Positions 5,565 to 63,058 of a DNA stretch of 64,000 nucleotides are shown one piece after another (the first letter of the stretch is position 1; each line of letters begins with the position of its first letter). The position numbers and the translations under genes were made by a program. A model generated the notes under the pieces. The model had not been told where the DNA came from, searched no databases, and saw only the letters and a program-made list of their open reading frames with translations. The DNA comes from Candidatus Woesebacteria bacterium (GTDB lineage: Bacteria > Patescibacteriota > Microgenomatia > UBA1400 > UBA12108): NCBI GenBank assembly GCA_018060845.1, contig JAGOVG010000005.1, forward strand, positions 2,530 to 66,529, written 5' to 3'.

Positions 5565-5668
5565 GAAGTATTTTGTAGTCGAAAAATTTTGCGCAGGCCG
5601 GGTAGGCCGAGCTCGAGGTCGCCCCGCCAGCTGGCGGGGATAGACCGCTTTTTCGCACAAAGTACTTC
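5565..5668. repeat. Structured ~100-nt repeat element, family R1, copy 1. Terminal inverted repeats gaagtattttg / caaagtacttc enclose a conserved core (aaaaattttgcgcagg.cgggtag.ccgagctcgaggtcgc) and a variable inner hairpin (ccccgccagctggcgggg).
   Basis: Direct comparison with the copies at 11572, 16627 and 55987. Confidence 0.7.
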
Positions 5669-5687
5669 GAACTCTGTATGCGAACTA

Positions 5688-11546: not shown

Positions 11547-11571
11547 TTCTCATAAAACGGTTACAGACACA

Positions 11572-11665
11572 ACTTTACAGTCAAAAAATTTATCGCAGTT
11601 CGGGTAGAACGAGATCGAGGTCGCTGAGTCAGCTGACTCAGACAGACCGCTTTTTTGCGTAAAGT
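11572..11665. repeat. Family R1 structured repeat, copy 3 (divergent). Inner hairpin ctgagtcagctgactcag and outer stem actttac/gtaaagt both carry compensatory changes relative to copies 1 and 2.
   Basis: Alignment to the other copies. The conserved core cgggtagaacgagatcgaggtcgc...gacagaccgctttttt is retained. Confidence 0.6.
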
Positions 11666-11687
11666 GGGTCGAAAACCAATATTAGAA

Positions 11688-12547: not shown

Positions 12548-13580
12548 ATAATTCCTCTACCGGGAAAAAAAGTGTATCAGCAATGCTCGGTGTATCGGCA
12601 AATAGTGCGACCAGCCTGTCCACCCCGACAGCTATTCCCCCAGTTGCTGGAATACCTAGCTTTAGCGCTTCGATAAAATCCTCATCCATTGGATACTCGG
12701 TCTTACCTAGTTTTTTGCGCTCCAAGAGGTCTGCTTTACACCTACTCTCCTGCTCTCTCCAGTCCGTCAGCTCCGAAAAACAGTTCCCTAGCTCGTATCC
12801 TGCCAGATACACTTCCCATCGCTCCGCAAACCTTGGGTCTTTTGCTTTACGCGCGAGCGCAGCCTGGGACACAGGAAAATCGTACAGGATAGTCGGGCCA
12901 GCTACACCCAGCTTAGGTTCTATCTCATTTGCGATGATCTGGTTCCACATCTCTTCCCACGTCGAGTTCTCGTCGACTTGATACCCTTTATTTTTGCTCG
13001 CCACAAACAGCTTATCCCTATCCAGCATCGACTCGGTATCAATCTCTGCATACTTTTCAAAAGCTTGCGCAACAGATATCCTCTCCCACGGTGCCTTTAG
13101 CGAATATTCTTTACCTTGATACTTAAGTGTTGTTGCATTGTTGCTATGTTGCATTCTATTGTTTATCGCAATCATCATTTCCTCAAAATCTGCTGCCACC
13201 GTCATATAGTCACCTGGTGTGTGATACCACTCGAGGATGGTAAACTCTGGGTTGTGCCGACTAGACCGCCCCTCACCGTTACGAAAAGATTTGGCAATGG
13301 TAAAGATGGAGCCTGACCCAGCAGATAAGAGTTTTTTTAGTGCAAACTCAGGTGAGGACGGCAAAAAACCGTCCCACTTATTGCCATGATCATCTACTAG
13401 CTGAGTCTTAAATACCTCTAGGAATGGCTCGGTAGAAGGCGTGGGGAGTAGTAGCGGCACCTCTGCTTCATGAAATCCACGAGTCTTAAAAAATGAGCGA
13501 ATCGCGTCAATTACCTGCTCTCTCACCCAGTACTGGCGCCACAGCGCGGGATTAGCTTTTAGTTTTTGAAATGTTTTCAC
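12534..13580 (-). CDS. epmA: EF-P lysine ligase-like class II aminoacyl-tRNA synthetase paralog (EpmA/GenX/PoxA-like, i.e. LysRS catalytic core without an anticodon-binding domain).
   Basis: 348 aa. Class II aaRS motifs (FTILEWY, GYELGNCFSEL, GGIAVGVDRLVALF). No N-terminal OB domain. Lies ~1 kb from efp. Confidence 0.6.
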   Translation of the reverse strand: MKTFQKLKANPALWRQYWVREQVIDAIRSFFKTRGFHEAEVPLLLPTPSTEPFLEVFKTQLVDDHGNKWDGFLPSSPEFALKKLLSAGSGSIFTIAKSFRNGEGRSSRHNPEFTILEWYHTPGDYMTVAADFEEMMIAINNRMQHSNNATTLKYQGKEYSLKAPWERISVAQAFEKYAEIDTESMLDRDKLFVASKNKGYQVDENSTWEEMWNQIIANEIEPKLGVAGPTILYDFPVSQAALARKAKDPRFAERWEVYLAGYELGNCFSELTDWREQESRCKADLLERKKLGKTEYPMDEDFIEALKLGIPATGGIAVGVDRLVALFADTPSIADTLFFPVEELYDRK

Positions 13581-13882
13581 TCAAGTATCTTAACACTGTC
13601 CGGATTTAACACATATTGATCAGTTGGTCGAAGAGTAATGATCATAGCTTCATCGCCAAAACCTCCATGATCATCAAACCAACCCATCTTCTCCAGATCT
13701 TCTCGAGTAATTCCATGCTGCCAGTTACCTTGCGAAACCACCCAGTCAATAACCGATGCTTCCCACTTTAGCGCATCAAGTCCACACTTTTCCACTACCC
13801 CCTTAGCCACAGGATATCCTTGTCCTTCTTTGAGATTAAGATATTCCCGTACTGATATACCTAGAATTACTACCTCTGTCAT
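13577..13882 (-). CDS. Hypothetical protein (101 aa). Its stop overlaps the start of the EpmA-like gene.
   Basis: ORF with ATGA overlap. Confidence 0.35.
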   Translation of the reverse strand: MTEVVILGISVREYLNLKEGQGYPVAKGVVEKCGLDALKWEASVIDWVVSQGNWQHGITREDLEKMGWFDDHGGFGDEAMIITLRPTDQYVLNPDSVKILE

Positions 13883-13966
13883 ATATTGAACATTTTAATC
13901 GTTTGAATATTGTTTTCCTGACATTTTTTGACAAAAACTACCAGTACATCATGCATACTCTCCAGG

Positions 13967-14302
13967 TTAGCGCGTAATAACTTTGTGTATCTTGCATTGA
14001 GTGTAATCATCACATCGCACATTGCATTTGTTAACTGCCTCAGTTACAGTCGCGATATCTTTGGGGAGCTGCTCATTAATGTCAGCAAGGCTCTTCTCAT
14101 CACCATAGGCTCTAATATTCGTATCATTTATCATCGGATCAAGTCTTAAAAATTTGGGGATAAGTCTTAAAGCAGAGTTAACTACAAAATGTGGAGCAGT
14201 AATTGCAAAAACCCTGAGTGTGTGAGCTATTTTACCCTGTGAACCCTTACATTCAACCTTACTTGCATGTTGTTCCATTTCTACCAAAGCAGCATTACTC
14301 AT
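13967..14302 (-). CDS. Hypothetical protein (111 aa). Divergent partner of wHTH paralog C.
   Basis: ORF. Its leader contains a TATGGGGT motif shared with the leaders at 46764 and 50899. Confidence 0.35.
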   Translation of the reverse strand: MSNAALVEMEQHASKVECKGSQGKIAHTLRVFAITAPHFVVNSALRLIPKFLRLDPMINDTNIRAYGDEKSLADINEQLPKDIATVTEAVNKCNVRCDDYTQCKIHKVITR

Positions 14303-14382
14303 ATAATCCTTTCATATAATTATATATCTACCCCATAGTCTACATAGTAAAAATAATATTTCCTGACAAATTTTGACACCAG

Positions 14383-15417
14383 GTGTATACTATGGGATAT
14401 ATGAAAATAGCTTGGGACTGGTCACTAGAGAGCGAGGCAGAGAGGATACTTGAGATGTCCCTCAAGATCAGTAATGGCTTCTACCACCTCCATCACTTCC
14501 TCCCCCTCCCATTTGACCTAAAAAATACTCGAAAAGATACCTCCCACCATGTCTATCTCCCAGATCTACCCTATACCAAGATCCCTCGGTACTGGGAGTC
14601 TACAAGTCAGGTTGGGGCAACCTACCCCCTCAAACAACTTGGTTCTATCTCCGACCAGTTAGCGCAGCATCTTACCCTCCGCAAACTCCCTTCGCTCGAT
14701 AGCCATATAGTCCAACCAGATGCCGAGATCTATCTCCCCCTAGTGATTACTTGGCTACAATACACGTTCCCTAGACTTCCGCTCCCAGAGACAATCTTGA
14801 TCCACCCCAGCTACTTTGGCACCGGCGGCTCATTCTATTTTAATCAAGAGTCAAAAACAGTCATCCTCTATCTGCGCCATGATCAAGGCCTCTACCCCCT
14901 AGTTGAGATCCTCTTAACTGCACTCCTTAGGCCTCATGCAGGCGAGACCATCTATGCCGACTGGGAAAAGACAGAGTACCTAGTCGACTATCTACTCCTC
15001 GAGAGTAATCTAAAAGATCTCCTGCCCTCTCCTTCTTCTTGGACTCCTACTACCATCCCACCCCACTACTCACTATTCACAGTCAAAGAGTCGACAGACT
15101 TTGTCAAAAAAATAGGACTTAGCAACCATGTCGAATGCCAGTTTAGTCTAGAGGGTGATACTATCTGCTTTAACCATGTCCTCCTGACAGACTTTACAGC
15201 TAGCCAACATGCATTACTTTCTGCCTTGATCTCGCGCTCACCCGCGCCCTTAACCGTAGACGAGATCGCAGACTTAATATTCACCAAAGATGAAAAATTT
15301 AGCCTGAGTGCAATCGGCAAAACTATAGAGAGGCTTCGCAAAAAACTAACGACACTCGGCATCAGTAGTAGCTATATCGCAACAGCGAGCGGTGTCGGGT
15401 ATTATCTCAAGAATTAA
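14383..15417 (+). CDS. Standalone transcriptional regulator with a C-terminal OmpR/PhoB-type winged-helix DNA-binding domain and no receiver domain (paralog C of three).
   Basis: The C-terminal region (LTVDEIADLIF...TIERLRKKL...SGVGYYL) has the trans_reg_C pattern. The N-terminal domain aligns with 50966..52000 (LPxLPYTxIPRxWES, ILLTALLRP/ILAAIFRP). Confidence 0.55.
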   Translation: MYTMGYMKIAWDWSLESEAERILEMSLKISNGFYHLHHFLPLPFDLKNTRKDTSHHVYLPDLPYTKIPRYWESTSQVGATYPLKQLGSISDQLAQHLTLRKLPSLDSHIVQPDAEIYLPLVITWLQYTFPRLPLPETILIHPSYFGTGGSFYFNQESKTVILYLRHDQGLYPLVEILLTALLRPHAGETIYADWEKTEYLVDYLLLESNLKDLLPSPSSWTPTTIPPHYSLFTVKESTDFVKKIGLSNHVECQFSLEGDTICFNHVLLTDFTASQHALLSALISRSPAPLTVDEIADLIFTKDEKFSLSAIGKTIERLRKKLTTLGISSSYIATASGVGYYLKN

Positions 15418-16626: not shown

Positions 16627-16728
16627 GAGTATTTTGCAGTCAAAAAATTTTGCGCAGGGCGGGTAGCCCGAGCTCGAGGTCGCCCCGCCAGCTGGCGGGG
16701 ATAGACCGCTTTTTTGCGCAAAGTACTC
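16627..16728. repeat. Family R1 structured repeat, copy 2. Nearly identical core and inner hairpin to copy 1. Outer stem gagtattttgc/gcaaagtactc.
   Basis: Alignment. Lies in the divergent intergenic region between mreB and the O-antigen-ligase-like gene. Confidence 0.7.
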
Positions 16729-16764
16729 TGAATCGCAGTGACATAATCCTGTTATACTTTTCCT

Positions 16765-45744: not shown

Positions 45745-46122
45745 ATGTCAGATCTTAATGCTCTAGTAGAGCAAATCGAAAAATTATCCGTTCTCGAAGT
45801 CGCCGACCTCGTCAAAGCACTCGAAGAAAAATTTGGTGTTAGTGCAGCCGCTCCTATGATGGCCGCTCCAGCAGCAGGTGCAGCAGCCGCCGCTCCTGTC
45901 GAAGAGAAAGACAGTTTTGATGTCGTACTCACTGCAGGTGGTGCCAACAAAATCGGTGTCATCAAGGTAGTTCGCGAACTCAACCAGACCCTCGGCCTCA
46001 AAGAAGCCAAGGATCTAGTCGAAGCAGCTCCAAAAGTACTCCTAGAGGGTGCTAAAAAAGAAGATGCCGAAGCAGCCAAGAAAAAGCTCGAAGAAGCTGG
46101 TGCAACAGTCGAACTCAAATAA
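45745..46122 (+). CDS. rplL: 50S ribosomal protein L7/L12
   Basis: Ala-rich hinge. C-terminal domain [28 protein letters not shown]. Confidence 0.9.
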
Positions 46123-46145
46123 GAACTTTAGTTACTTATTAAATC

Positions 46146-46174
46146 AAAAACCCCGTCATAAGGCGGGGTTTTTA
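46146..46174 (+). terminator. Rho-independent terminator after rplL (ccccg-tcataagg-cgggg + TTTTT)
   Basis: GC hairpin followed by a T-run. Confidence 0.6.
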
Positions 46175-46196
46175 GTAGTGTTTTAGCAAGAATTTA

Positions 46197-46763
46197 TTAC
46201 CATGATCTAGTTGATAGCTTTGGCGCAAAATGACCTTGAAGATCAAAATTCAAGTCTCCATGTATCTTCGGGTCGTACTCCTGCCATTTTCCTTTCACCA
46301 TTACCCTATACTCATACCACTCTGCCCCATCTGGCTCTGTATGCAGCGTTACTCTTTTATCTGTATGCTGAATTATCGCACCCCTCCTTCGACTACCCTT
46401 AAATCCATTTCTCATATATCCATCAACAATCGGGAAATAATCGCGCTCATCATCTGGATTATCTAATCGTTTCCCTTGAGACACAGTAAGAAATTCCAAA
46501 GCATCCTTGGCTCCATGATAATATTCTTCGATTTCACGATTAGTCAAGTCACATGGCTCTTTTCCTAACTCACCAATCATATATATGCCTACAATAGTGC
46601 TTAATGTATGCGCTGTTCTCGCCGCCATGAGTTCAATCAACTGACCAGGATTAGAGTTTCTATCGACAACTTTAATAATTTTCCCCAGTAAATCTAGATT
46701 TGCGTATCCACGACTATCTAGTATTCTATAAAGCTGAAGTTCAGTTTGTGTACCCATACACAC
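46197..46763 (-). CDS. Hypothetical protein (188 aa). Divergent partner of wHTH paralog A. RBS AGGAGG.
   Basis: ORF. Its ~45-nt leader is nearly identical to that of gene 50269..50898. Confidence 0.4.
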   Translation of the reverse strand: MCMGTQTELQLYRILDSRGYANLDLLGKIIKVVDRNSNPGQLIELMAARTAHTLSTIVGIYMIGELGKEPCDLTNREIEEYYHGAKDALEFLTVSQGKRLDNPDDERDYFPIVDGYMRNGFKGSRRRGAIIQHTDKRVTLHTEPDGAEWYEYRVMVKGKWQEYDPKIHGDLNFDLQGHFAPKLSTRSW

Positions 46764-46861
46764 CTCCTATGTTTTGTTTAACCCCATAATATTGACAGAT
46801 CCTGGTATAATTGCTTGATTAGTTAGTTGACACTAATATGTCAACTTGACAGAGTATCGTT
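46764..46861. promoter_or_regulatory. Divergent intergenic control region. It holds the conserved leader (CATACACACCTCCTATGTTTTGTTTAACCCCATAATATTGACAGATC), TTGACA-type repeats, and the 7-bp inverted repeat GTTGACA-ctaata-TGTCAAC.
   Basis: Near-identical ~45-nt block also at 50896..50940. The palindrome was read directly from the sequence. Confidence 0.5.
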
Positions 46862-47947
46862 ATGAACAGTTATAGTCAAATGCCAATCAACTACCTCGAA
46901 CCTCAGTATTCAACCTGGGGCAGATATCTCTCATCGCATCAAACATGTAACATATTTTTTCTTAAGAACACAGGTATCATCCCGCGTATACTCCAGTTTG
47001 TTGACTATTACCATGGTGTTGAAAAAATAAAACCAGTTGTCCTCGATCTAGAAGCACTCAATGCTACTGACCCTCATAATCTCCTGACTGTATTATCCGA
47101 GGCTGGAAGCAAACCAACCATAATAATAGCCAGAGACCTATTCCTTCAGCCAGGTGCTAGCCGACTCGAGAAGGTTCTGGAACAATACTATGTCTCATCA
47201 ACTAGTGGTCTATTAATCGTTCATGAATGCGCACCACACGAACTTTATAACAACTATGAGCGAGCATCATGTCTCTATGTACACCCTCAATTATTCAAGC
47301 TACCCTCAGAAAAGTCAGTGTTAACAGAATACATTAAGAGTACATCTAGATTATGGAAACTGACCTTAACTCCGGCAATAATAGATGAAATTATTGCCTA
47401 CTCAGGCAATATCCCTTGGTTACTCAACGAAAGCATAAGACTCTGCAGCGAAAACCCAAACCTCAAATTTATTGAAATATGCAAACTCCCGAGTCTGAGC
47501 AGCAGAGTAATGTCGTTCTATTCGACCCTCCCCAAGATCTACAAAATACAGCTAAATAGTAAAATGGATCAAGTGGCAAAAGACGAATTAATCGGTTTTG
47601 GACTCATGCAAAGCGACCATCTAATTGGTGAACATTTAAACGAATCTACACATAACTACAAAAAAGAAAAGTTAACAACCACTCCAACCCAGATCCTTCT
47701 TAACTCTATCGACATCTCTGCCTTTTTCTCAAACAGTGAATTGCGACTCATCAACTTACTAAATACTACATCTAAAGAAACTCTAACACGTGATGAAGTG
47801 GCAAATACATTTTATAATACAGACGAGTCATACAGCGACTGGGCCCTATCTCAGATGATCACTAGACTTAGGGCTAAAATAAACAAGCACGAGATACCCT
47901 TAACTATCACGACCAAAAGAGGTATAGGATATGGGATCTCCCGCTGA
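46862..47947 (+). CDS. Standalone regulator with a C-terminal OmpR/PhoB-type winged-helix domain (paralog A; its N-terminal domain diverges from B and C)
   Basis: C-terminal ETLTRDEVANTFY...SQMITRLRAKINK...TKRGIGYGI matches the trans_reg_C pattern. Confidence 0.5.
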   Translation: MNSYSQMPINYLEPQYSTWGRYLSSHQTCNIFFLKNTGIIPRILQFVDYYHGVEKIKPVVLDLEALNATDPHNLLTVLSEAGSKPTIIIARDLFLQPGASRLEKVLEQYYVSSTSGLLIVHECAPHELYNNYERASCLYVHPQLFKLPSEKSVLTEYIKSTSRLWKLTLTPAIIDEIIAYSGNIPWLLNESIRLCSENPNLKFIEICKLPSLSSRVMSFYSTLPKIYKIQLNSKMDQVAKDELIGFGLMQSDHLIGEHLNESTHNYKKEKLTTTPTQILLNSIDISAFFSNSELRLINLLNTTSKETLTRDEVANTFYNTDESYSDWALSQMITRLRAKINKHEIPLTITTKRGIGYGISR

Positions 47948-49319
47948 GCAGTTTTTACCATTATCAGTAGTCGCGAGTATTACTGGAATCTGGCCACAAC
48001 CACTCCATGAACCAGGTGTAGTATCGATTCTAAAAGAATATCCAAAAGGTGCTGTTGGCATCGGCTTGAATGCTACGAGAAGTACTCTCATCGAAAGCAC
48101 TTCAGTATCAGGTAGTTGCGCTGTTCCCGATGGGCATTATCAGGGAGAACAATCAGGATTAACACGGGCACTCTCTCCGGTTTTTACCAACCGCCAAGTT
48201 AACGTTAGAGCTGGAAAATCCGATGACGCTGCCCTACTCCCACCCGAGGCAACTAATACTTTTTCCCATGCCTCAAATCTAGATTTGATTGAAGATGATA
48301 GTCCCGACGCCACAGCCTGGAAACAAACTCTTAACTTTCAGTCTGGACCTAACATAGATATTGTCGAAAAATCTAAATTTCGTAATCTGGAATCAGTCAA
48401 TGCAATCCTCTTTGCTATCTACCCAGCCTACACCTACCTTAACTCACTAGACAGAGATGGATATTACAGTCTTTTTCGCCACGAAGGACGTATCACAATT
48501 TTAAGGTATCACAATTTTAATAATAGAACTCATGGAGGAACCAACTTTATAGCTATTCCTAATGGCAGAGACGAGTATAACGAGCGTAGTATCGGCCGCG
48601 TACACCAAACGCGAGCATTAGCCCACAACTCAAATGGTGAACCAGGTTTTTTCACAGATCCTCGATTTTATGATGAACCTAGCCGGCTACTCATAGACTC
48701 ACAAGACCCTAGCATTCGCCTCAAATGGCTTGCTCAAGAACTACGTACCCAAACACGAAAACCCTCTCATCATGTCGACTTTGGTAGTCACCACCTCGAA
48801 ACACTGAGGTATTCAACAGATAAAATTAACCCTAACGACGCTTCTCGCATTACAGCAGAAGTTTTTAACGCACTGTTTGAGAATTACGACTTCACAGCGG
48901 GTCAACTCAAGTCTCTCGGTCTTTGGGGAACAGTATTTGCTCAAAATAATGCTAGAGAGGTCAAGCAAAGCCTAGAACGTGCTGAAGCGACTTACTTTAG
49001 AGACAACGCTTCTCACGGAGGAGTATTTAGTAAGCTCAGCAGCCATCTATTTGCCGAGCTTATGGCTATCGCCCTGCCAATCCCTCTAAGTCAATTTATC
49101 ACCCGCCCAACCAAAAGCGATCGAGTTATCGCAACTTCGTACATTGGTCATCATAGTCCACGTTCTCTCTGGGCAGATCGACAGCTTACCATGGCAAAAA
49201 ACGCATTAGAAAAAACCAAACGTATCGCTAAATCACGTGGAGACGAAAACACAGTTAAGATGTTGGAGCACGATATTCACTACTTCAGCAATGAAATCTC
49301 AAAATCTAGCTGGGATTAA
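47931..49319 (+). CDS. Hypothetical protein (462 aa), likely co-transcribed with wHTH paralog A (17-nt overlap)
   Basis: ORF only. Confidence 0.4.
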   Translation: MGSPAEQFLPLSVVASITGIWPQPLHEPGVVSILKEYPKGAVGIGLNATRSTLIESTSVSGSCAVPDGHYQGEQSGLTRALSPVFTNRQVNVRAGKSDDAALLPPEATNTFSHASNLDLIEDDSPDATAWKQTLNFQSGPNIDIVEKSKFRNLESVNAILFAIYPAYTYLNSLDRDGYYSLFRHEGRITILRYHNFNNRTHGGTNFIAIPNGRDEYNERSIGRVHQTRALAHNSNGEPGFFTDPRFYDEPSRLLIDSQDPSIRLKWLAQELRTQTRKPSHHVDFGSHHLETLRYSTDKINPNDASRITAEVFNALFENYDFTAGQLKSLGLWGTVFAQNNAREVKQSLERAEATYFRDNASHGGVFSKLSSHLFAELMAIALPIPLSQFITRPTKSDRVIATSYIGHHSPRSLWADRQLTMAKNALEKTKRIAKSRGDENTVKMLEHDIHYFSNEISKSSWD

Positions 49320-49540
49320 CCTTCTTTTTGCGTACTTCTCTGCATAGCTTCAGCCTCTCCTGCACCCTGATAAAACTTTTCAAATAAGTCTTTCCAATCT
49401 TTAAATCTTGTTTTTTGATACGAAGAGCCATCTAGAGTGCCTGGGGGAAAGTTGTATTTCTTTTCCCACAACCTCTTGGCTTCTTCACTCATTCCCTCAA
49501 CCTCTTGTAAAGCATCAGTAGCAGCACTCATTCTACTCAT
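49316..49540 (-). CDS. Hypothetical small protein
   Basis: ORF only. Confidence 0.25.
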   Translation of the reverse strand: MSRMSAATDALQEVEGMSEEAKRLWEKKYNFPPGTLDGSSYQKTRFKDWKDLFEKFYQGAGEAEAMQRSTQKEG

Positions 49541-49635
49541 ATCTATATATTATCAAATTATCGCTCGTCAACTTGACACCCATAGTCAGCTAAGAGGTCA
49601 AGCGAAGTTTGTGAAGCAGGTTTAATATACAGAAC

Positions 49636-49893
49636 ATGGCCATAGGTGAAAAAGATGTCTTATACGATCCACAAGACTTAAAGGAGCAGATCATTGCTGC
49701 ACTAACCCCTGCTCAACTGGCACGTATCGAAGAGTACAGTAACATGGCTGAAGTCGCAGGAGTTACAGTCAAAGCAGAATATGGCCCACCCGCACAAATC
49801 TATATAACAAATAGTCTCCGTCAAGGAGCCACAACACCATTACCCAAGGGTAGCGAGCTAGCCCAAATCTTACAGAATAGAACAAGAACCTAG
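49636..49893 (+). CDS. Hypothetical protein (85 aa)
   Basis: ORF only. Confidence 0.3.
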   Translation: MAIGEKDVLYDPQDLKEQIIAALTPAQLARIEEYSNMAEVAGVTVKAEYGPPAQIYITNSLRQGATTPLPKGSELAQILQNRTRT

Positions 49894-49898
49894 GAATA

Positions 49899-50243
49899 AT
49901 GATAAATATCGCTCACTTTGACAATGATCCACTTGTGTTCAGAAACACCGAAAAATTTCTTAAGCCTGCTGGTATAAATATTGTTAGAAAGGTGGAGTCT
50001 CTCAAGGATGCTCGAGTAATTATCCCTACTTTATTTGATCTTGGGGTCATCCTAGCTCTAATCGATGGCGATATCGGTGGAGAAGAGATTGCCAGACTCC
50101 TCGCTCAGGTTTGCCCATCAATCATCCGCGTAGGTTACACAGCTGAAGCTCGTTTTGATAACTTGCATGAGTACATTTTCAAAACCACTCCACCAGATGA
50201 GTTTGTTAGGTTAGTTAAATTGTATACAGCTCAAACAACATAA
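49899..50243 (+). CDS. Single-domain CheY-like receiver protein (orphan response-regulator receiver domain)
   Basis: Acidic pair FDND near the N-terminus. Candidate phospho-acceptor Asp in LALIDGDIGG. Conserved T (VGYTAE) and K (IFKTTPP) in the expected order and spacing. Confidence 0.45.
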   Translation: MINIAHFDNDPLVFRNTEKFLKPAGINIVRKVESLKDARVIIPTLFDLGVILALIDGDIGGEEIARLLAQVCPSIIRVGYTAEARFDNLHEYIFKTTPPDEFVRLVKLYTAQTT

Positions 50244-50268: not shown

Positions 50269-50898
50269 CTAATATCTAAAAGCGTCCCAAAGATGAGGTG
50301 CTTCACCGTTAGCAAATGAGGTAATCCCATTCTGTATATAACGTTTACTAACTTCATCTATGTCATCAAAGGAAACACCAACTGGTCTTACATCGCTAAG
50401 TATTGAATTAATAGAGCGCAGCAATGTGTGTGGAAACCAATATATCTTATTATCTAATCCGCCGTAGACAAATTCTATTTCATTTCGATATTCGATACAG
50501 TCAAATATAGGACTAGGCCACTCAGAAATATCTATGGGCACACGATATGGCCCACCCCAGAGTGTTCCACTCCCGTGCTTCTTGATATATACCCCCCTAT
50601 CCTTCGCACTGCCATTACAGGTTTTTGAGACCACGCTCACTGCTCGCTGCAGATCCCCTCGGTATTGCAGTATATGCTCACCGTACATGGCTCTGTTTGC
50701 ATCTGGTATTAGTGAAGCCTGATCAAACGCGAGTTGATACAACGCAATCGAAGTCCACCAAGATCTATATCCATCATCGCCATTTGCAGCATTATGCCAT
50801 TCTACTAGTTCTGGGCGTACTAACCTGCCACTACCATCAAGCATGTGCTTACTAATCAATTTAAACGCATCCTTCCAAGTTTCTCTTTGGCCTATCAT
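50269..50898 (-). CDS. Hypothetical protein (209 aa). Divergent partner of wHTH paralog B. RBS AGGAG.
   Basis: ORF. The leader is conserved with that of 46197..46763. Confidence 0.4.
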   Translation of the reverse strand: MIGQRETWKDAFKLISKHMLDGSGRLVRPELVEWHNAANGDDGYRSWWTSIALYQLAFDQASLIPDANRAMYGEHILQYRGDLQRAVSVVSKTCNGSAKDRGVYIKKHGSGTLWGGPYRVPIDISEWPSPIFDCIEYRNEIEFVYGGLDNKIYWFPHTLLRSINSILSDVRPVGVSFDDIDEVSKRYIQNGITSFANGEAPHLWDAFRY

Positions 50899-50965
50899 AC
50901 ATATCTCCTAAGTTCATTTAACCCCATAATCTTGACACATCTGAGATAATTATCTTGACACTTTT
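50899..50965. promoter_or_regulatory. Divergent intergenic control region, paralogous to 46764..46861 (TTTAACCCCATAATCTTGACACATC). It has two CTTGACAC repeats 24 bp apart and a TGACGTCA palindrome at the start of the + gene.
   Basis: Direct alignment of the two intergenic regions. Confidence 0.5.
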
Positions 50966-52000
50966 ATGACGTCAAAGAACTGGACTATACCAACTATTAA
51001 CTTTACCCACTCTCCAGAGCTGGAGGCTCGGCGTATCCTCTTTGTCGCCGGTAGCCTCGCCCGTGGCTGGTACCAAAAACACAACTTCCTCATCCTCCCC
51101 GAGCTTGCTGCGCGTGCTCCATCCAGCCAGGTCATCCTCCCCAACCTACCCTATACCACAATCCCTCGCTTTTGGGAGAGTGTGGCCAAACTCAAACTCG
51201 TGACTCCACAGCTCGCGCCTGCCCCGCTCATTGCCGCTACCGAGGCATTGTGTAAGCCATTCTACAAACCAGCGCTATATGTTAGTCATTTATCAGAGCT
51301 AGAAAAATCATATAATCAAGTCAAAGATAACTTTTGGAATACTTTATTTACTCTATTTCCCAGCTACTCCTCCAGAGTAAAAGTTATTACTATCATCAGT
51401 TCTCAGTACGGATCGAGCTCCAGCTTTAACTTGGCTACCACAGAATATAGTTCGATCACAATATATCTACGATCTGATACCAAAATCGATAAACTACTCT
51501 GGTCTATCCTTGCCGCAATCTTTCGACCAAAAATGCAAGATGAGCAAAAATATAGCTGGGAAGAGGTCGAGGCCGTAATAGACTGGCTCATGTCCGAGTC
51601 CAGCCTGGCAGCTAAGCTATCACACCCCCACCCAACTCTCACCAATCTGCGAGCCAACCAACTGTCTAAGTATCGCCAGGATAGCGAGGCATATCTCTCT
51701 AGTCTTGGTATCTCTGGCGTGCTACGCCTAGAAAAGCTTAGTAGTAGCTACTCATATGGTGACACCAAGATCTCTGATTTGACTACCAAACAGCAGATCC
51801 TACTCGATCTACTCCTCGTGAGACGCGGTTTAACCGTAAGTTACGACGAAATCGCCGCATCACTTTGGCCCGACGACGAAGATTGGTCTCTGTATGCCAT
51901 AACCAAAGAAGTTCAAAGACTGCGAGACAAAATAAAAAGTTGTGGGATCAACTCTCCACTCATCCACGCACACCGCAAACTCGGCTACTCGATCGCCTAG
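50966..52000 (+). CDS. Standalone regulator with a C-terminal OmpR/PhoB-type winged-helix domain (paralog B)
   Basis: C-terminal LTTKQQILLDLLLVRRGLTVSYDEIAASLW...RLRDKIK...HRKLGYSI. The N-terminal domain aligns with 14383..15417. Confidence 0.55.
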   Translation: MTSKNWTIPTINFTHSPELEARRILFVAGSLARGWYQKHNFLILPELAARAPSSQVILPNLPYTTIPRFWESVAKLKLVTPQLAPAPLIAATEALCKPFYKPALYVSHLSELEKSYNQVKDNFWNTLFTLFPSYSSRVKVITIISSQYGSSSSFNLATTEYSSITIYLRSDTKIDKLLWSILAAIFRPKMQDEQKYSWEEVEAVIDWLMSESSLAAKLSHPHPTLTNLRANQLSKYRQDSEAYLSSLGISGVLRLEKLSSSYSYGDTKISDLTTKQQILLDLLLVRRGLTVSYDEIAASLWPDDEDWSLYAITKEVQRLRDKIKSCGINSPLIHAHRKLGYSIA

Positions 52001-52022: not shown

Positions 52023-52060
52023 CCTGCCCGCAGTGCTATAGCACAGCTATTGCAGGCGGG
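52023..52060. repeat. Family R2 small hairpin repeat, copy C (cctgcccgcagtgctatagcacagctattgcaggcggg). The inner stem carries a compensatory G-C pair where copies A and B have A-T.
   Basis: Alignment with the copies at 21714 and 62528. Confidence 0.5.
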
Positions 52061-52290
52061 TTCCCCCATTTATCCATACCACTACTGGTAGTGCCGCGCC
52101 CCTAACGAAGCCATAGGCGGAGTGGGGTCCTAGGTCGCACAATACATCTATATCAATCTATTCATTTATAACTACTAGAACATCTTCATAGATCTATACA
52201 TATCATATACATAGTCAAATGATATCCTATTGACACTCACCCATACAATTGCTAATATCAACACATAACCTGTAATGAGCTCGCCGAATT

Positions 52291-52497
52291 ATGAACAACT
52301 CAGTCGATCTAAAAAATCTCCCCGACCTACTCACAGTTAGAGAAGTAGCTGACCTCCTCCGTGTCTCTCCCCTCACCCTCAAACGCTGGGGCAAACGCGG
52401 CAAGCTCCCTGCTATTCGCATCAACTCGCGCGGTGACCGCAGGTACAAAAAAGAACAGGTTCAATGGCTACTTGGAATTAATCCAGATCAAGCTTAA
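52291..52497 (+). CDS. Small excisionase/MerR-type HTH (HTH_17-like) DNA-binding protein
   Basis: LLTVREVADLLRVSPLTLKRWGKRGKLPAIRINSRGDRRYKKEQV pattern. The 4-nt stop overlaps the convergent dus gene. Confidence 0.5.
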   Translation: MNNSVDLKNLPDLLTVREVADLLRVSPLTLKRWGKRGKLPAIRINSRGDRRYKKEQVQWLLGINPDQA

Positions 52498-55986: not shown

Positions 55987-56089
55987 GGAGTATTTTGTAA
56001 AGAAAAATTTTGCGCAGGTCGGGTAGACCGAGCTAGAGGTCGCTACGCCATCAGGCGGAGACAGACCGCTTTTTCTGACAAAATACTCC
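55987..56089. repeat. Family R1 structured repeat, copy 4. Outer stem ggagtattttgt/acaaaatactcc (12 bp). Inner hairpin ctacgcc-atca-ggcggag.
   Basis: Alignment. Lies immediately downstream of the mreB paralog-2 stop. Confidence 0.7.
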
Positions 56090-56108
56090 GAACCACCGAG
56101 TGAGCTGA

Positions 56109-57309: not shown

Positions 57310-58221
57310 ATGACCAACTTTGAGACAACATCCTACACTATCTCCGAAACCGCCGAAAAGCTAGACCTCTCCGAAAAAACTCTGCGAAGGTGGGAAGAAG
57401 CCGGGCGCTTTGCCCCATCACGCACGGTTGGTAATCAGCGTCGTTATACTGTCGAAGACCTCCAAATACTGGACGCTATCAAACACAACATCATCCCCCA
57501 TCAAAAAGATTTATTAAATATAACAGCGGCCGCCCAGTTTTTGGATGTGACCGAACCCACGATAGAGCGCTTAGTTAGCGAGGGCTCTCTCCACCCCTTT
57601 ATCACTGTCACTGGCAGATACTACCCACGCCATCGCCTACTCCCATTCCTCGGAAACCTCAAAGGTGAGTCCCCTATCCCACCCACTATCCCCAGCCTAA
57701 CTCCAACCACAGACCCAGTTCCCGAGCCAGTTAAACAGTTCGTAACTCCACCACTTCCCCCTCAGTCAACTGTAGTCCCACTTTCAAAGAATAATACTCA
57801 ATCCCACCCTTCTTACACTATATATAGTATGCAGGTGGTCATTACTGTCGCCCTCCTCACCGTCTACCATCTCCTCTTCCGTGCTCCCATTACCCCAACT
57901 AGCCCCACTCCAGTTCCTGGCAGTGTCCAGGGTGCGGCAACCAATCCCAGTCTCCTCCTACTCGACGACATGCTAGATAGCACAACTGGTGGTCTAACTG
58001 CCACAACCATTACCTCCAAGCTAGGTACCATCACCCCAAACCTCACCCTGCTGCCCGGGATCTCCCCCACCTCGCCGTTCCCAGGTAGTCTCTACTATGA
58101 TGCGAGTGAAAATGTCCTAAAAATCTACACCACTAACGGCTGGCAAGCAATCACAACTTCTGCCGAACTAAACGCACTTAAATTTGATCTGGAATCAAAG
58201 GTTGCAACTACAAGTAACTAG
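57310..58221 (+). CDS. Membrane protein with two tandem N-terminal MerR/excisionase-type HTH domains, a Pro-rich linker, one TM helix and an extracytoplasmic C-terminal domain
   Basis: Two LxxKTLRRWEExG / LDVTEPTIERLVSEG HTH repeats. TM VVITVALLTVYHLLF. Confidence 0.45.
   Translation: MTNFETTSYTISETAEKLDLSEKTLRRWEEAGRFAPSRTVGNQRRYTVEDLQILDAIKHNIIPHQKDLLNITAAAQFLDVTEPTIERLVSEGSLHPFITVTGRYYPRHRLLPFLGNLKGESPIPPTIPSLTPTTDPVPEPVKQFVTPPLPPQSTVVPLSKNNTQSHPSYTIYSMQVVITVALLTVYHLLFRAPITPTSPTPVPGSVQGAATNPSLLLLDDMLDSTTGGLTATTITSKLGTITPNLTLLPGISPTSPFPGSLYYDASENVLKIYTTNGWQAITTSAELNALKFDLESKVATTSN
58160..58221 (+). repeat. 3'-terminal coding segment of gene 57310..58221 (…AELNALKFDLESKVATTSN*). A diverged copy is duplicated at 59580..59641.
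   Basis: ~60-nt similarity. The differences are mostly synonymous. Confidence 0.6.
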
Positions 58222-58261
58222 CCCATTGACACCCTATAGCATAAGTGTAGAATACACATCT

Positions 58262-59566
58262 GTTATGTCTCAAGTAGCAGAAACAGGGGTAAGCAAAGCC
58301 ATTAGAAGCGCAGGCGACCTGTTTTGGAGCGTACCATCCTCGATCGCCACTTACTATGCGCTAGGTGTCAGCATGCTGACCGAAATTACCCAGGTAGCTA
58401 CCACACAAAGAACATCACAGCTCAGCCCTGCTTCTGATTTTTATACGACAGAGTATATAGAGGTCCTCCAAGATAGCTATGAGCCTTACAGGATACTAGA
58501 GAATGTTATTCCACAATCAGACAACTATTTCACACCAGGCGAACTAGGATTCATCCTCGCTGGCATGCACCTATTCTCTCGCAATCTAAATTTTGACGAC
58601 CCAAGTGGATTTACTAATCCATTATCAAGACTCTCTGCAAATCTAGAGGAAAAACAGGCTAAGCTCTCTAGCATTTTTGACAATGCACTAGAAAATCACC
58701 CGTTTATCAGAGCTACCCTACACCAGCTCTCGCGGTCACTAGAATACTCTACGGTCATACTAGACCCACTACTCCCATCAGCTGCCAAGTTATTAGTGCT
58801 GGGTATCGCAACGGAGGCATATATCGACAACCCAGCTATCTACAGCGCACTGCTACTAGTGTCTACTGTCGGAACCATTATCACTATCAACGATATTATC
58901 AGGATTACAGGCAAATCATTAGATGCTCTCCAAAAATTCGGTTTCCAAATAACCGCTGATGAGCCAATTACAAATAGTAGCACATCTACCATAAATATGG
59001 CCAAGAGTTCCTCAAAACCGGGATCTAATAGAACAAAATCCGCTCAATCGGCGAGCCATTATGCGCCAATTATGAGTGCTCACCCTGACGCAAGTTCACT
59101 GGGCGGACTAGGTATTGATCCAAATCAGGCCTTATTACACCAGATGTCTCCAAAAGGCAACAGAAAATCAGTCGATGTGGGTTCCTTTAGTATTGTTGTG
59201 GAATCTGAGGTCGATACTCATTTGGGGTTGGTTGGACCACAATCAGAATCTGCGGCACGCAATCTAGCCGCTGAGCTCAGAAGTAAAGGTGTAAAAGTTG
59301 CCGTAGTAGATACAGATAATTCCATTGGCAGATTAGGATCTAAGACTGAAGGTGGCGCTGTAGTTATTGCTTTCACTAGAAATCCTAGTCCAGTCGAACC
59401 TAGCAATGAACACTATGATCGAGAAAAACCTCAATTAGGTGCTACTGTTATTACTTTCAAAGCCGTAGACGATACAACCATTGTAGCGAACGATATCCTA
59501 ACAGGTAAACCGTTCACTGGAATTATTGGCAAGAAGAAACCTCCATCGCCAAAACTTCTAAAATAG
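58262..59566 (+). CDS. Hypothetical protein (start at MSQVAETG), flanked by the duplicated 3' tail of the upstream gene
   Basis: ORF in a different frame from the upstream gene. Confidence 0.4.
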   Translation, partial: VMSQVAETGVSKAIRSAGDLFWSVPSSIATYYALGVSMLTEITQVATTQRTSQLSPASDFYTTEYIEVLQDSYEPYRILENVIPQSDNYFTPGELGFILAGMHLFSRNLNFDDPSGFTNPLSRLSANLEEKQAKLSSIFDNALENHPFIRATLHQLSRSLEYSTVILDPLLPSAAKLLVLGIATEAYIDNPAIYSALLLVSTVGTIITINDIIRITGKSLDALQKFGFQITADEPITNSSTSTINMAKSSSKPGSNRTKSAQSASHYAPIMSAHPDASSLGGLGIDPNQALLHQMSPKGNRKSVDVGSFSIVVESEVDTHLGLVGPQSESAARNLAAELRSKGVKVAVVDTDNSIGRLGSKTEGGAVVIAFTRNPSPVEPSNEHYDREKPQLGATVITFKAVDDTTIVANDILTGKPFTGIIGKKKPPSPKLLK

Positions 59567-59579
59567 CCAAATATAGCCA

Positions 59580-59641
59580 CTAGAACTAAATGCACTCAAA
59601 TTTGATCTGGAATCAAAGGTTGCTACAAATACTAGCAACTA
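59580..59641 (+). repeat. Orphan second copy of the upstream gene's C-terminal tail (encodes ELNALKFDLESKVATNTSN*)
   Basis: Alignment to 58160..58221. Confidence 0.6.
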
Positions 59642-62527: not shown

Positions 62528-62562
62528 CCTGCCCGCAATGCTACGCATAGCGTTGCAGGCGG
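62528..62562. repeat. Family R2 small hairpin repeat, copy B (cctgcccgcaatgctacgcatagcgttgcaggcgg). It sits between two copies of the PEGA gene's 3' tail.
   Basis: Alignment. Confidence 0.5.
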
Positions 62563-62570
62563 ACGCATCC

Positions 62571-62620: not shown

Positions 62621-62642
62621 CCTAACGTCCCGGTAGTTCAAC

Positions 62643-62677
62643 GGATAGCCCAGCTGCTCGCGAGCGGCTGGGTCCTA
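62643..62677. repeat. 35-bp direct repeat DR-left (ggatagcccagctgctcgcgagcggctgggtccta). It contains the near-perfect 22-bp palindrome CCAGCTGCTCGCGAGCGGCTGG and is preceded by a tRNA D-arm-like segment.
   Basis: Identical 35-mer at 63024..63058. Confidence 0.6.
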
Positions 62678-62938: not shown

Positions 62939-63010
62939 GCTCCCATAGTTTAACGGATAGAACAGAGGTTTCCTAAACCTCTAATCCAAGTTCAATTCTT
63001 GGTGGGGGCA
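62939..63010 (+). tRNA. tRNA-Arg (anticodon CCT)
   Basis: Acceptor gctccca/tgggggc (one G-U). Anticodon stem gaggt/acctc with loop uuCCUaa. T-arm ccaag-TTCAATT-cttgg. Confidence 0.75.
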
Positions 63011-63023
63011 CAATATTTTCAAT

Positions 63024-63058
63024 GGATAGCCCAGCTGCTCGCGAGCGGCTGGGTCCTA
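63024..63058. repeat. 35-bp direct repeat DR-right, identical to 62643..62677. It is followed by a second, related palindromic hairpin (ccagctcttcgcgaagggctgg).
   Basis: Exact repeat. The second hairpin has compensatory C-G to T-A changes. Confidence 0.6.

Follow-up and report, generated by a model that had tools for sequence, protein, structure and literature searches.

Three paralogous regulator genes and the small genes they face

We analysed 64 kb of DNA from a Candidatus Woesebacteria bacterium (contig JAGOVG010000005.1; the whole 64,000-nucleotide stretch is called the window here) around a short sequence block that recurs in two intergenic regions, each lying between a regulator gene and a small gene pointing the other way. 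The NCBI entry that is 100% identical to the 344-residue protein encoded at 50966–52000 belongs to Candidatus Woesebacteria, in the Candidate Phyla Radiation. Bacteria of this radiation cannot be grown alone, and to our knowledge almost nothing is known of their transcriptional control; a literature search on this regulator family and on promoters in these bacteria found nothing relevant. A first-pass annotation of the window had proposed that the block is a duplicated leader and operator for the adjacent winged-helix proteins, with a weaker third copy elsewhere.

Three members of the regulator family, and no more, were found in the window by profile search; we refer to these paralogues as modules 1, 2 and 3 (Table 1). 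Each is divergent from a small minus-strand gene without a known domain, and these partner genes had no match in Pfam, PADLOC or NCBIfam. For comparison, orthologous loci were taken from metagenomes and genome bins (labelled L001–L025), with nine loci coming from genome and metagenome scans. Synteny is kept in them: rplJ and rplL are followed by the leftward gene or genes, the module-2 regulator, a protein of 390–460 amino acids (aa) and several small genes, and then by the next leftward gene, the module-3 regulator, a helix–turn–helix gene and Dus.

All three window regulators match Trans_reg_C (PF00486) with 39.8–41.8 bits against a cut-off of 26.2 (E 1e-10 to 5e-10), and a PDB profile search reached DrrD at E 3.6e-10. 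In a full-length AF2 model of the module-3 regulator (pLDDT 86.9), residues ~255–343 align with the effector domains of NsrR, CovR, ArlR, GlnR and PhoB (Foldseek TMt 0.66–0.77, root-mean-square deviation 2–3.5 Å), with structure 1GXP among the matches; as modelled, the C-terminal ~90 residues are an OmpR/PhoB winged-helix effector fold, which consists of a β-sheet at its N-terminal end, a bundle of three helices including the recognition helix, and a hairpin wing at its C-terminal end. The N-terminal 251 residues (pLDDT 90.5, pTM 0.88) had no structural match in the PDB (best E 0.46, TM ≤0.22). A receiver domain was considered and rejected: none of the three proteins matches Response_reg, and full-length response regulators align through the DNA-binding domain only. 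No histidine kinase was found in the scanned neighbouring genes of the window or in the orthologous loci, apart from HATPase_c_2 in L006, which belongs to an unrelated gene. Among 1.84 billion representatives, a profile search returned 416 clusters at E≤1e-30, nearly all of ~330–355 aa; judged by these matches, this is a sizeable uncharacterised family of fixed architecture.

The module-2 regulator is only 32–47% identical to the alleles of close relatives. Its best-kept stretch is the recognition helix, YSDWALSQxIxRLR, with 12 of 17 residues retained against 32% overall. In a protein that is otherwise hypervariable, retention of the helix fits a conserved DNA target.

Table 1. Positions of regulators, partner genes and control elements in the window
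Feature	Position	Strand	Details
Second exact tandem-box copy	13918–13933	+	CTGACA-N4-TTGACA; upstream of leftward gene 13577–13882
Module-1 leftward partner	13967–14302	-	111 aa; no known domain
Module-1 control elements	14363–14391	+	CTGACA 14363–14368, TTGACA 14373–14378 (10-bp period), TATACT 14386–14391
Module-1 regulator	14401–15417	+	338 aa; Pfam Trans_reg_C E 4.1e-10; start ATG 14401 by alignment to P0021 and P0024
Module-2 leftward partner	46197–46757	-	186 aa; family B; no known domain; ATG 46757 backed by L003 and L014
Module-2 block copy	46755–46832		Defined by alignment and box spacing
Module-2 start codon; ribosome-binding site	46755–46757; 46763–46768	-	Ribosome-binding site AGGAGG
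Module-2 leftward -10-like element	46777–46791	-	TTTAACCCCATAATA, i.e. TATTAT + GGGG read on the minus strand
Module-2 boxes	46792–46797; 46815–46820; 46827–46832		Box 1 TTGACA; box 2 TTGATT (degenerate); box 3 TTGACA
Module-2 rightward -10-like element	46803–46811	+	TG-n-TATAAT
Module-2-specific extension	46826–46851		GTTGACA-N6-TGTCAAC, then TTGACA 46846–46851
Module-2 regulator	46862–47947	+	361 aa; novel N-terminal domain, C-terminal OmpR/PhoB winged helix; Trans_reg_C E 4.7e-10
Gene after module-2 regulator	47931–49319		462 aa; overlaps the regulator gene; no known domain
Third box array of the locus	49567–49602		GTCAAC-TTGACA-N6-GTCAG-N7-GTCAAG; upstream of plus-strand genes 49636–49893 and 49899–50243
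Module-3 leftward partner	50269–50898	-	209 aa; family A; no known domain
Module-3 block copy	50896–50975		Defined by alignment and box spacing
Module-3 start codon; ribosome-binding site	50896–50898; 50905–50909	-	Ribosome-binding site AGGAG
Module-3 leftward -10-like element	50917–50931	-	TTTAACCCCATAATC, i.e. GATTAT + GGGG read on the minus strand
Module-3 boxes 1 and 2	50932–50937; 50955–50960		Both TTGACA
Module-3 rightward -10-like element	50945–50954		GATAAT inside palindrome GATAATTATC
Module-3 box 3 and inverted partner	50966–50975		ATGAC/GTCAA, i.e. TGACGTCA; overlaps the regulator start codon
Module-3 regulator	50966–52000	+	344 aa; 65–89% identical in relatives

A shared block in two divergent intergenic regions

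The intergenic regions of modules 2 and 3 share a 21-mer, TTTAACCCCATAATMTTGACA, that occurs exactly twice in the window (46777–46797 and 50917–50937; 0.01 occurrences expected). The best local alignment pairs 46755–46819 with 50896–50958 and has 52 of 65 columns identical at a score of 59, against maxima of 28 in 1,000 shuffles and 29 among 1,140 other window segments. Homology extends to ~46832 and ~50972, about 78 nucleotides (nt), once the conserved 23- and 12-bp spacing of the boxes described below is counted. The duplicated block reported by the first-pass annotation is thus real and far above chance; its AGGAG-type ribosome-binding sites, its 7-bp inverted repeat (GTTGACA-N6-TGTCAAC, 46826–46845) and the palindrome TGACGTCA in the second region (50967–50974) were confirmed as well. 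Several of its details needed correction. The first sequence that it quoted begins at 46755 rather than 46741, ATG 46757 is a likelier leftward start than GTG 46763 (orthologues begin MSTQ.. or MSRQ..), and the start context ATGTGTATG, given as common to both copies, is merely similar in them (GTGTGTATG versus ATATGTATG).

Read leftward, the aligned block runs TGTCAA-KATTAT-GGGGTTAAA, ~10 nt, AGGAG(G), 5–6 nt and ATG. In order, these parts read as a -10-like KATTAT with a G-rich discriminator, a leader of ~20 nt, the ribosome-binding site and the start codon. Discriminators of the GGG(A) type strengthen promoters that lack a -35 element, according to work on sigma region 1.2. What had been called a leader as such corresponds to the 5′ untranslated region, ribosome-binding site and start codon of the leftward gene together with this -10/GGGG element, and no RNA structure was found in it.

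Read rightward, the block offers another -10-like hexamer. It is TG-n-TATAAT in module 2, whereas module 3 has GATAAT, TATAAT or TACAAT, and A2 and T6 are kept as in a functioning -10. A consensus scan at 16–18-nt spacing found no plus-strand promoter pair in either intergenic region. The module-3 regulator ATG lies 10–15 nt past this hexamer in orthologues (15 nt in the window) and the module-1 ATG exactly 9 nt past its own in four of four, in both cases without a ribosome-binding site; from these short distances and the lack of such a site, both mRNAs are predicted to be leaderless or nearly so. The rightward leader of module 2 is ~50 nt long and bears GTTGACA-N6-TGTCAAC followed by another TTGACA.

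The two copies have been distinct for a long time, recurring in relatives with regulator proteins of only 45–89% identity. Both are present with copy-specific signature bases in L001, L009, L003 and L012 (ATATTGACAG versus ATCTTGACAC, and TGGTATAATTGC versus TGAGATAATTATC), so that module 2 reads ATATTGACAG...TGGTATAATTGC and module 3 reads ATCTTGACAC...GATAATTATC or TATAATTATC. Between genomes, module-2 intergenic DNA is 85–88% identical versus 56–75% for the regulator coding sequence, and module-3 intergenic DNA 71–97% versus 60–89%; the module-2 block by itself is 85–93% identical in L001, L009 and L003, next to coding sequences at 56–75%. The TTGACA of box 1 and the TGAC within box 3 are invariant in 14 of 14 aligned regions, as is most of the 13-mer TTAACCCCATAAT, while the spacers vary. 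Among the fetched loci this 13-mer is confined to intergenic regions of the module-2 and module-3 type. Box coordinates relative to the regulator ATG are fixed inside each orthologue group, those of module 3 being identical in nine orthologous loci.

Natural departures from this pattern are instructive. Positions 800–875 of L020 hold a module-3 block minus exactly one 23-bp unit, comprising the -10-like hexamer and a box. The region is rearranged at 392–562 of L015, where TGACGTCA and one box are kept and the regulator starts ~35 nt further downstream; because the palindrome persists there without overlapping the start codon, it is a DNA element and does not reflect coding constraint. The six module-2 loci that were compared all carry the module-2 extension, and the arms of its inverted repeat differ by regulator allele: TTGACA/TGTCAA in the window type, CTGACA/TGTCAG in L001, with both arms changed together, and TTGACA/CGTCAA in L003. 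One of the four window-type alleles, L014, has TTGACG as its first arm. That the repeat varies with the regulator allele is suggestive in this comparison of three allele groups only.

The window's module-2 and module-3 regulators are ~24–34% identical as proteins, depending on the alignment, and 53% identical as DNA, and block copies within a genome are less alike (73–75%) than orthologous copies (85–97%). From these comparisons, the block was most likely inherited from the ancient duplication that gave rise to the two regulator genes and has been held by purifying selection since. We conclude that it is very probably a paralogous, selectively maintained region controlling expression in both directions.

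TTGAC(A) boxes as operators or as promoter elements

Boxes of the form TTGAC(A) are the most regular feature of the block. Their starts follow identical steps of 23 and 12 bp in module 2 (46792, 46815 and 46827) and module 3 (50932, 50955 and 50967). An indel before the -10-like hexamer is offset by one after it, so that the 23-bp distance from box to box is kept. The two CTTGACAC repeats, previously placed 24 bp apart, are also separated by 23 bp (50931 and 50954), and the 8 nt reported between TTGACA and the -10-like element applies to module 2 (TATAAT), the distance being 7 nt in module 3 (GATAAT). TTGACA is not enriched across the window (39 occurrences versus 34 expected). The module-2 intergenic region is nevertheless its densest TTGAC cluster, with 5 per 100 nt and four full TTGACA against a shuffle maximum of 3, and the module-3 region is among the top four clusters. 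A further array lies in the same locus (Table 1), where the 12-mer GTCAACTTGACA of the module-2 extension recurs at 49567, and is kept at the equivalent place in L001, L009, L003, L005, L012 and L014. Every multi-box arrangement in the window falls at loci of this family.

Module 1 has related elements in another arrangement. Its distal box forms a canonical pair, CTGACA-N17-TATACT, with the second box inside the spacer, and the element TTCCTGACA-N4-TTGACA-N7-TA[TC]A[CA]T-N9-ATG recurs without change in L023, L024 and L025, although the proteins there are 83–44% identical to that of the window. The claimed pair of repeats around its small gene is there, CTGACA-N4-TTGACA occurring exactly at 13918–13933 and 14363–14378; L023, where the partner genes differ, has no second copy at the equivalent place. 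The weaker third copy of the block did not survive inspection. Module 1 cannot be aligned to the block, ACCCCATAGT is kept in the closest relative (L023) only, and what the modules share is the architecture of boxes and promoter elements together with ACCCCATA, which occurs at 14330–14337, intergenic and just outside the partner gene. This motif has four matches in the window, against two expected, and three of the four lie in the intergenic regions of the three modules. Among more distant paralogues, L022 has a TTGACT-N4-TTGACG direct repeat.

We think that the boxes are probably operators of the adjacent regulators, through which these proteins would regulate their own genes and control the divergent ones; this proposal draws on sequence pattern and domain identity. 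Leftward, the block would supply the -10-like KATTAT, leader, ribosome-binding site and start codon to whichever gene adjoins it. Rightward, the -10-like hexamer, without a usable -35 partner, would drive the regulator gene. The OmpR/PhoB-type winged-helix domains would bind TTGAC(A) half-sites phased 23 and 12 bp apart, plus an inverted partner. The boxes occupy the spacer of the promoter that serves the regulator itself and overlie its predicted start site and the start codon, so binding there should repress the regulator. PhoB-type activators recruit RNA polymerase from the position of the -35 hexamer, and in module 3 one box replaces the leftward -35 (TGTCAA-N17-GATTAT); with a box in that position, the same protein would also govern the divergent partner. 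The paralogues may engage in cross-talk. The earlier suggestion that these sites are operators for the adjacent winged-helix proteins is partly supported; the part that stands is a cis-regulatory element under purifying selection beside OmpR/PhoB-type paralogues.

Several observations weigh against operators. The box sequence is the sigma-70 -35 consensus, and canonical pairs do exist: besides CTGACA-N17-TATACT of module 1, kept in four orthologues, there are TTGACG-N18-AATTAT on the minus strand of module 3 and TTGACG-N17-TAAACT in L022. The leftward -10 is also ambiguous, since KATTAT+GGGG competes with the AATTAT that pairs with TTGACG. The 23-bp spacing of modules 2 and 3 differs from the 10–11-bp tandem typical of OmpR/PhoB proteins, the distant paralogue locus L021 has TTTACA only and no clear boxes, and the exclusivity of the boxes is shown locally, within 64 kb of the genome. 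The main rival explanation, which we consider rather unlikely, is pure promoter DNA: TTGACA would be the -35 and the AT-rich hexamers the -10 of overlapping divergent sigma-70 promoters, with no dedicated regulator, and the need of RNA polymerase to read the block would by itself explain its conservation. The canonical pairs favour it, as does a plus-strand -10 that varies in the way a functioning one would. Where one box sits at the canonical 17–18 nt from such a -10, promoter function alone could account for part of the conservation.

Most boxes, however, do not fit this explanation. None of the plus-strand boxes of modules 2 and 3 is matched by a -10 element at 16–18 nt. Box 1 is 7–8 nt from the -10, box 2 lies over the predicted start site and box 3 over the start codon, and some boxes form inverted pairs; placed in these ways, most TTGACA boxes cannot be ordinary -35 elements. 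Three to five boxes per ~70–100 nt, inverted pairs included, together with the compensated indel, are likewise hard to reconcile with promoters alone. Ordinary TTGACA-N16–18-TAnnnT promoters at other places in the window, such as 52230, 57245, 40500 and 59917, have a single box each, and multi-box arrays occur at the loci of this family alone. The first-pass view that the boxes are not simple -35 elements accordingly holds for most of them and fails for those at canonical distance (module 1, the module-3 minus strand and L022), so that boxes and promoter elements overlap rather than exclude each other. Such overlap is expected of autoregulatory operators, yet it keeps the promoter explanation alive.

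Other repeats were seen in the window. A ~110-nt repeat has four intergenic copies (5567–5671, 11569–11673, 16628–16732 and 55988–56092; 73–92% identical) with two internal hairpins that change on both arms between copies (for example GGCCGGGTAGGCC / GTTCGGGTAGAAC / GGGCGGGTAGCCC) and a T-run after them; it had no Rfam match and has the look of a small structured RNA or of a repeat element that bears a terminator. Another intergenic repeat, CCTGCCCGCA...TGCAGGCGGG, is palindromic and rich in GC; occurring at 21714–21753, 52024–52060 and 62528–62567, it resembles a REP-like element or a shared terminator. A 41-nt direct repeat (62637–62677 and 63018–63058, 98% identical) flanks tRNA-Arg (62939–63011). 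A 44-nt repeat (58165–58208 and 59583–59626, 93% identical) stands at the ends of the adjacent genes 57310–58221 and 58184–59566, which points to tandem paralogues whose C-terminal or junction sequence is conserved.

Exchange of genes around the block and its meaning

The genes beside the block are replaced between relatives, which the first-pass annotation did not mention, nor did it mention the hypervariable module-2 regulator with its retained recognition helix. Next to module 2, a family-B gene is found in the window, L003 and L014; unrelated genes take over elsewhere, encoding a 193-aa protein together with a paralogue of family A in L001, three further small proteins in L009 and a 98-aa protein in L012. 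The module-3 partner is a family-A protein of 209–214 aa in four genomes and an unrelated protein of 148, 188 or 87 aa in L005, L006 and L008, family A having only four relatives in 5.8 billion clusters. The module-1 partners, 111 aa in the window and 92, 132 and 110 aa in L023, L024 and L025, are mutually unrelated.

The junctions are sharp. In module-2 loci conservation starts exactly at the start codon, CAT|ACACACCTCC, and six loci combine four unrelated types of first cargo gene with this one CAT-ACACACCTCC junction. Between the window and L001, rplL is 98% identical as DNA up to its stop at 46122, 46123–46753 have no homology, the block at 46754–46843 is 93% identical, and by blastn homology does not resume until 50177. 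Among the proteins of the same pair, the module-2 regulators are 32% identical, the downstream 462- and 444-aa proteins 25% and the module-3 regulators 89%. The locus is also a mosaic, the window resembling L003 and L014 to the left of the block and L009 to the right.

Other features of the neighbourhood were noted. The stretch 46123–50176 is a hypervariable island beside rplL with a GC content of 0.40–0.43 versus ~0.45 for the window. A 74-aa minus-strand open reading frame (ORF) at 49316–49540 separates the gene for the 462-aa protein from the third box array; the equivalent spacer is missing in L001, so that this ORF is possibly one more variable insert. The 114-aa protein encoded at 49899–50243 has weak similarity to CheY-like receivers (Pfam Response_reg E 0.075, TorS receiver E 0.006), with acidic-pocket, Asp, Thr and Lys positions that are plausible by eye; it stands alone between two receiver-less OmpR-type regulators and is kept in L009 (77%) and L012. 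Downstream of the module-3 regulator, 52291–52497 encodes a 68-aa helix–turn–helix protein of the BldC/excisionase type (NCBIfam E 1.7e-12), and most relatives keep this gene in the same place. Its promoter at 52230, TTGACA-N17-TAATAT, is canonical.

The sharp junctions, their reuse by unrelated cargo and the mosaic locus would all suit a block kept chiefly as a recombination anchor, that is, as a homology tract or site-specific target for cassette exchange. We hold this to be improbable. The gene tables of the fetched loci contain no integrase or recombinase Pfam domain, no att-like (attC-like) repeats were seen flanking the cargo genes, the module-3 and module-1 blocks are equally conserved despite stable regulators, and conservation inside the block, in the boxes, -10 and ribosome-binding site, has the pattern of expression signals. 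The same boundaries would follow from ordinary homologous recombination between conserved flanks, so an anchoring role is compatible with expression control and does not replace it. A mobile-element or phage origin of the block was likewise rejected, its 20-mer having no match in viral contigs and no recombinase domain lying nearby.

An RNA-level element, a leader structure, riboswitch or small RNA controlling translation or stability of the leftward gene, is more improbable still. The block does take in the leftward 5′ untranslated region and ribosome-binding site, and in the rightward leader the module-2 inverted repeat, in which four sequences show two changes on both sides, could form a hairpin of 7–11 bp. 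Rfam gave no match for the block at gathering score or at E≤1, however, RNAalifold found zero conserved pairs in the leftward leader of 11 sequences, and any plausible leftward transcription start lies downstream of the bases that are conserved best (TTGACA, ATAAT); both-sided change, seen here in four sequences only, is equally expected of a symmetric protein site. A recent, functionless segmental duplication (an objection that the first-pass annotation had itself raised) or gene conversion, which the spacing of 4.1 kb and 80% identity over 65 nt in one genome might suggest, is refuted by the orthologues, in which both copies keep their own signature bases alongside module-3 proteins 66–89% identical, with flanking coding DNA at the random level of 53% and no sign of concerted evolution.

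A region controlling expression in both directions thus remains the explanation that we prefer. A bolder extension of it strikes us as speculative and doubtful: the block might be a regulator-guarded 'expression socket' in the hypervariable island, where recombination at the block would swap unrelated ORFans, and even divergent versions of the module-2 regulator operon, and newcomers would inherit promoter, operator, 5′ untranslated region and start context. An undescribed one-component family would be in control, and it may act together with the receiver-like protein encoded at 49899–50243.

Comparison with known systems places the element. OmpR/PhoB proteins bind direct repeats of 6–7 bp with a 10–11-bp period, as in the pho box CTGTCAT-N4-CTGTCAT. 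The regulators described here share the DNA-binding fold and Pfam family of PhoB, the half-site read on the other strand, TGTCA(A/G), resembles the core TGTCA, module 1 (TGTCAA-N4-TGTCAG on the other strand) and L022 have direct repeats with the classical 10-bp period, and a module-3 box takes the place of the leftward -35. They differ from PhoB in a ~250-aa N-terminal domain without a PDB match, in having no receiver and no nearby histidine kinase, and in recognition-helix residues; in modules 2 and 3 the predicted sites are spaced by 23 and 12 bp and include inverted pairs, and positions relative to the -10 are not those of pho promoters. As in LysR-type divergent pairs, regulator and presumed target stand back to back across a short shared intergenic region with sites overlapping the regulator promoter, but the winged helix is C-terminal and of the OmpR type, there is no LysR substrate-binding domain, and the target is replaced by unrelated ORFans.

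ToxR, CadC and SARP/AfsR proteins also join an OmpR/PhoB winged helix to a non-receiver sensor or oligomerisation module, and ToxR and CadC domains were among the structural and sequence matches. Their DNA-binding domain is N-terminal, however, whereas it is C-terminal here as in response regulators, and the present proteins have no transmembrane segment or BTAD domain. Integron and expression-site cassettes offer a last likeness, a constant promoter, 5′ untranslated region and start context placed before exchangeable unrelated ORFs with a sharp junction. It is a resemblance only: no integrase, attI/attC or silent array was seen here, the BldC/excisionase-like helix–turn–helix protein being all that lies downstream, and the variation is between genomes.

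The type of element is therefore familiar, an autoregulated divergent promoter of regulator and target with repeated half-sites for an OmpR-type domain. New are the union of a receiver-less C-terminal OmpR domain with a fold without a solved relative, the geometries of the boxes, and the persistence of a ~90-nt control block in a hypervariable island where the genes to its left and right are exchanged. Should the boxes be promoter elements only, what remains is a divergent promoter of unusual density and good conservation. Otherwise it provides a concrete candidate regulon in bacteria of the Candidate Phyla Radiation, with a regulator family of at least 416 sequence clusters, a putative recognition element, TTGAC(A), in three geometries, and candidate target genes. 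By outlasting the genes on either side, the block marks the hypervariable island beside rplL, and it is a possible route by which new genes gain regulated expression.

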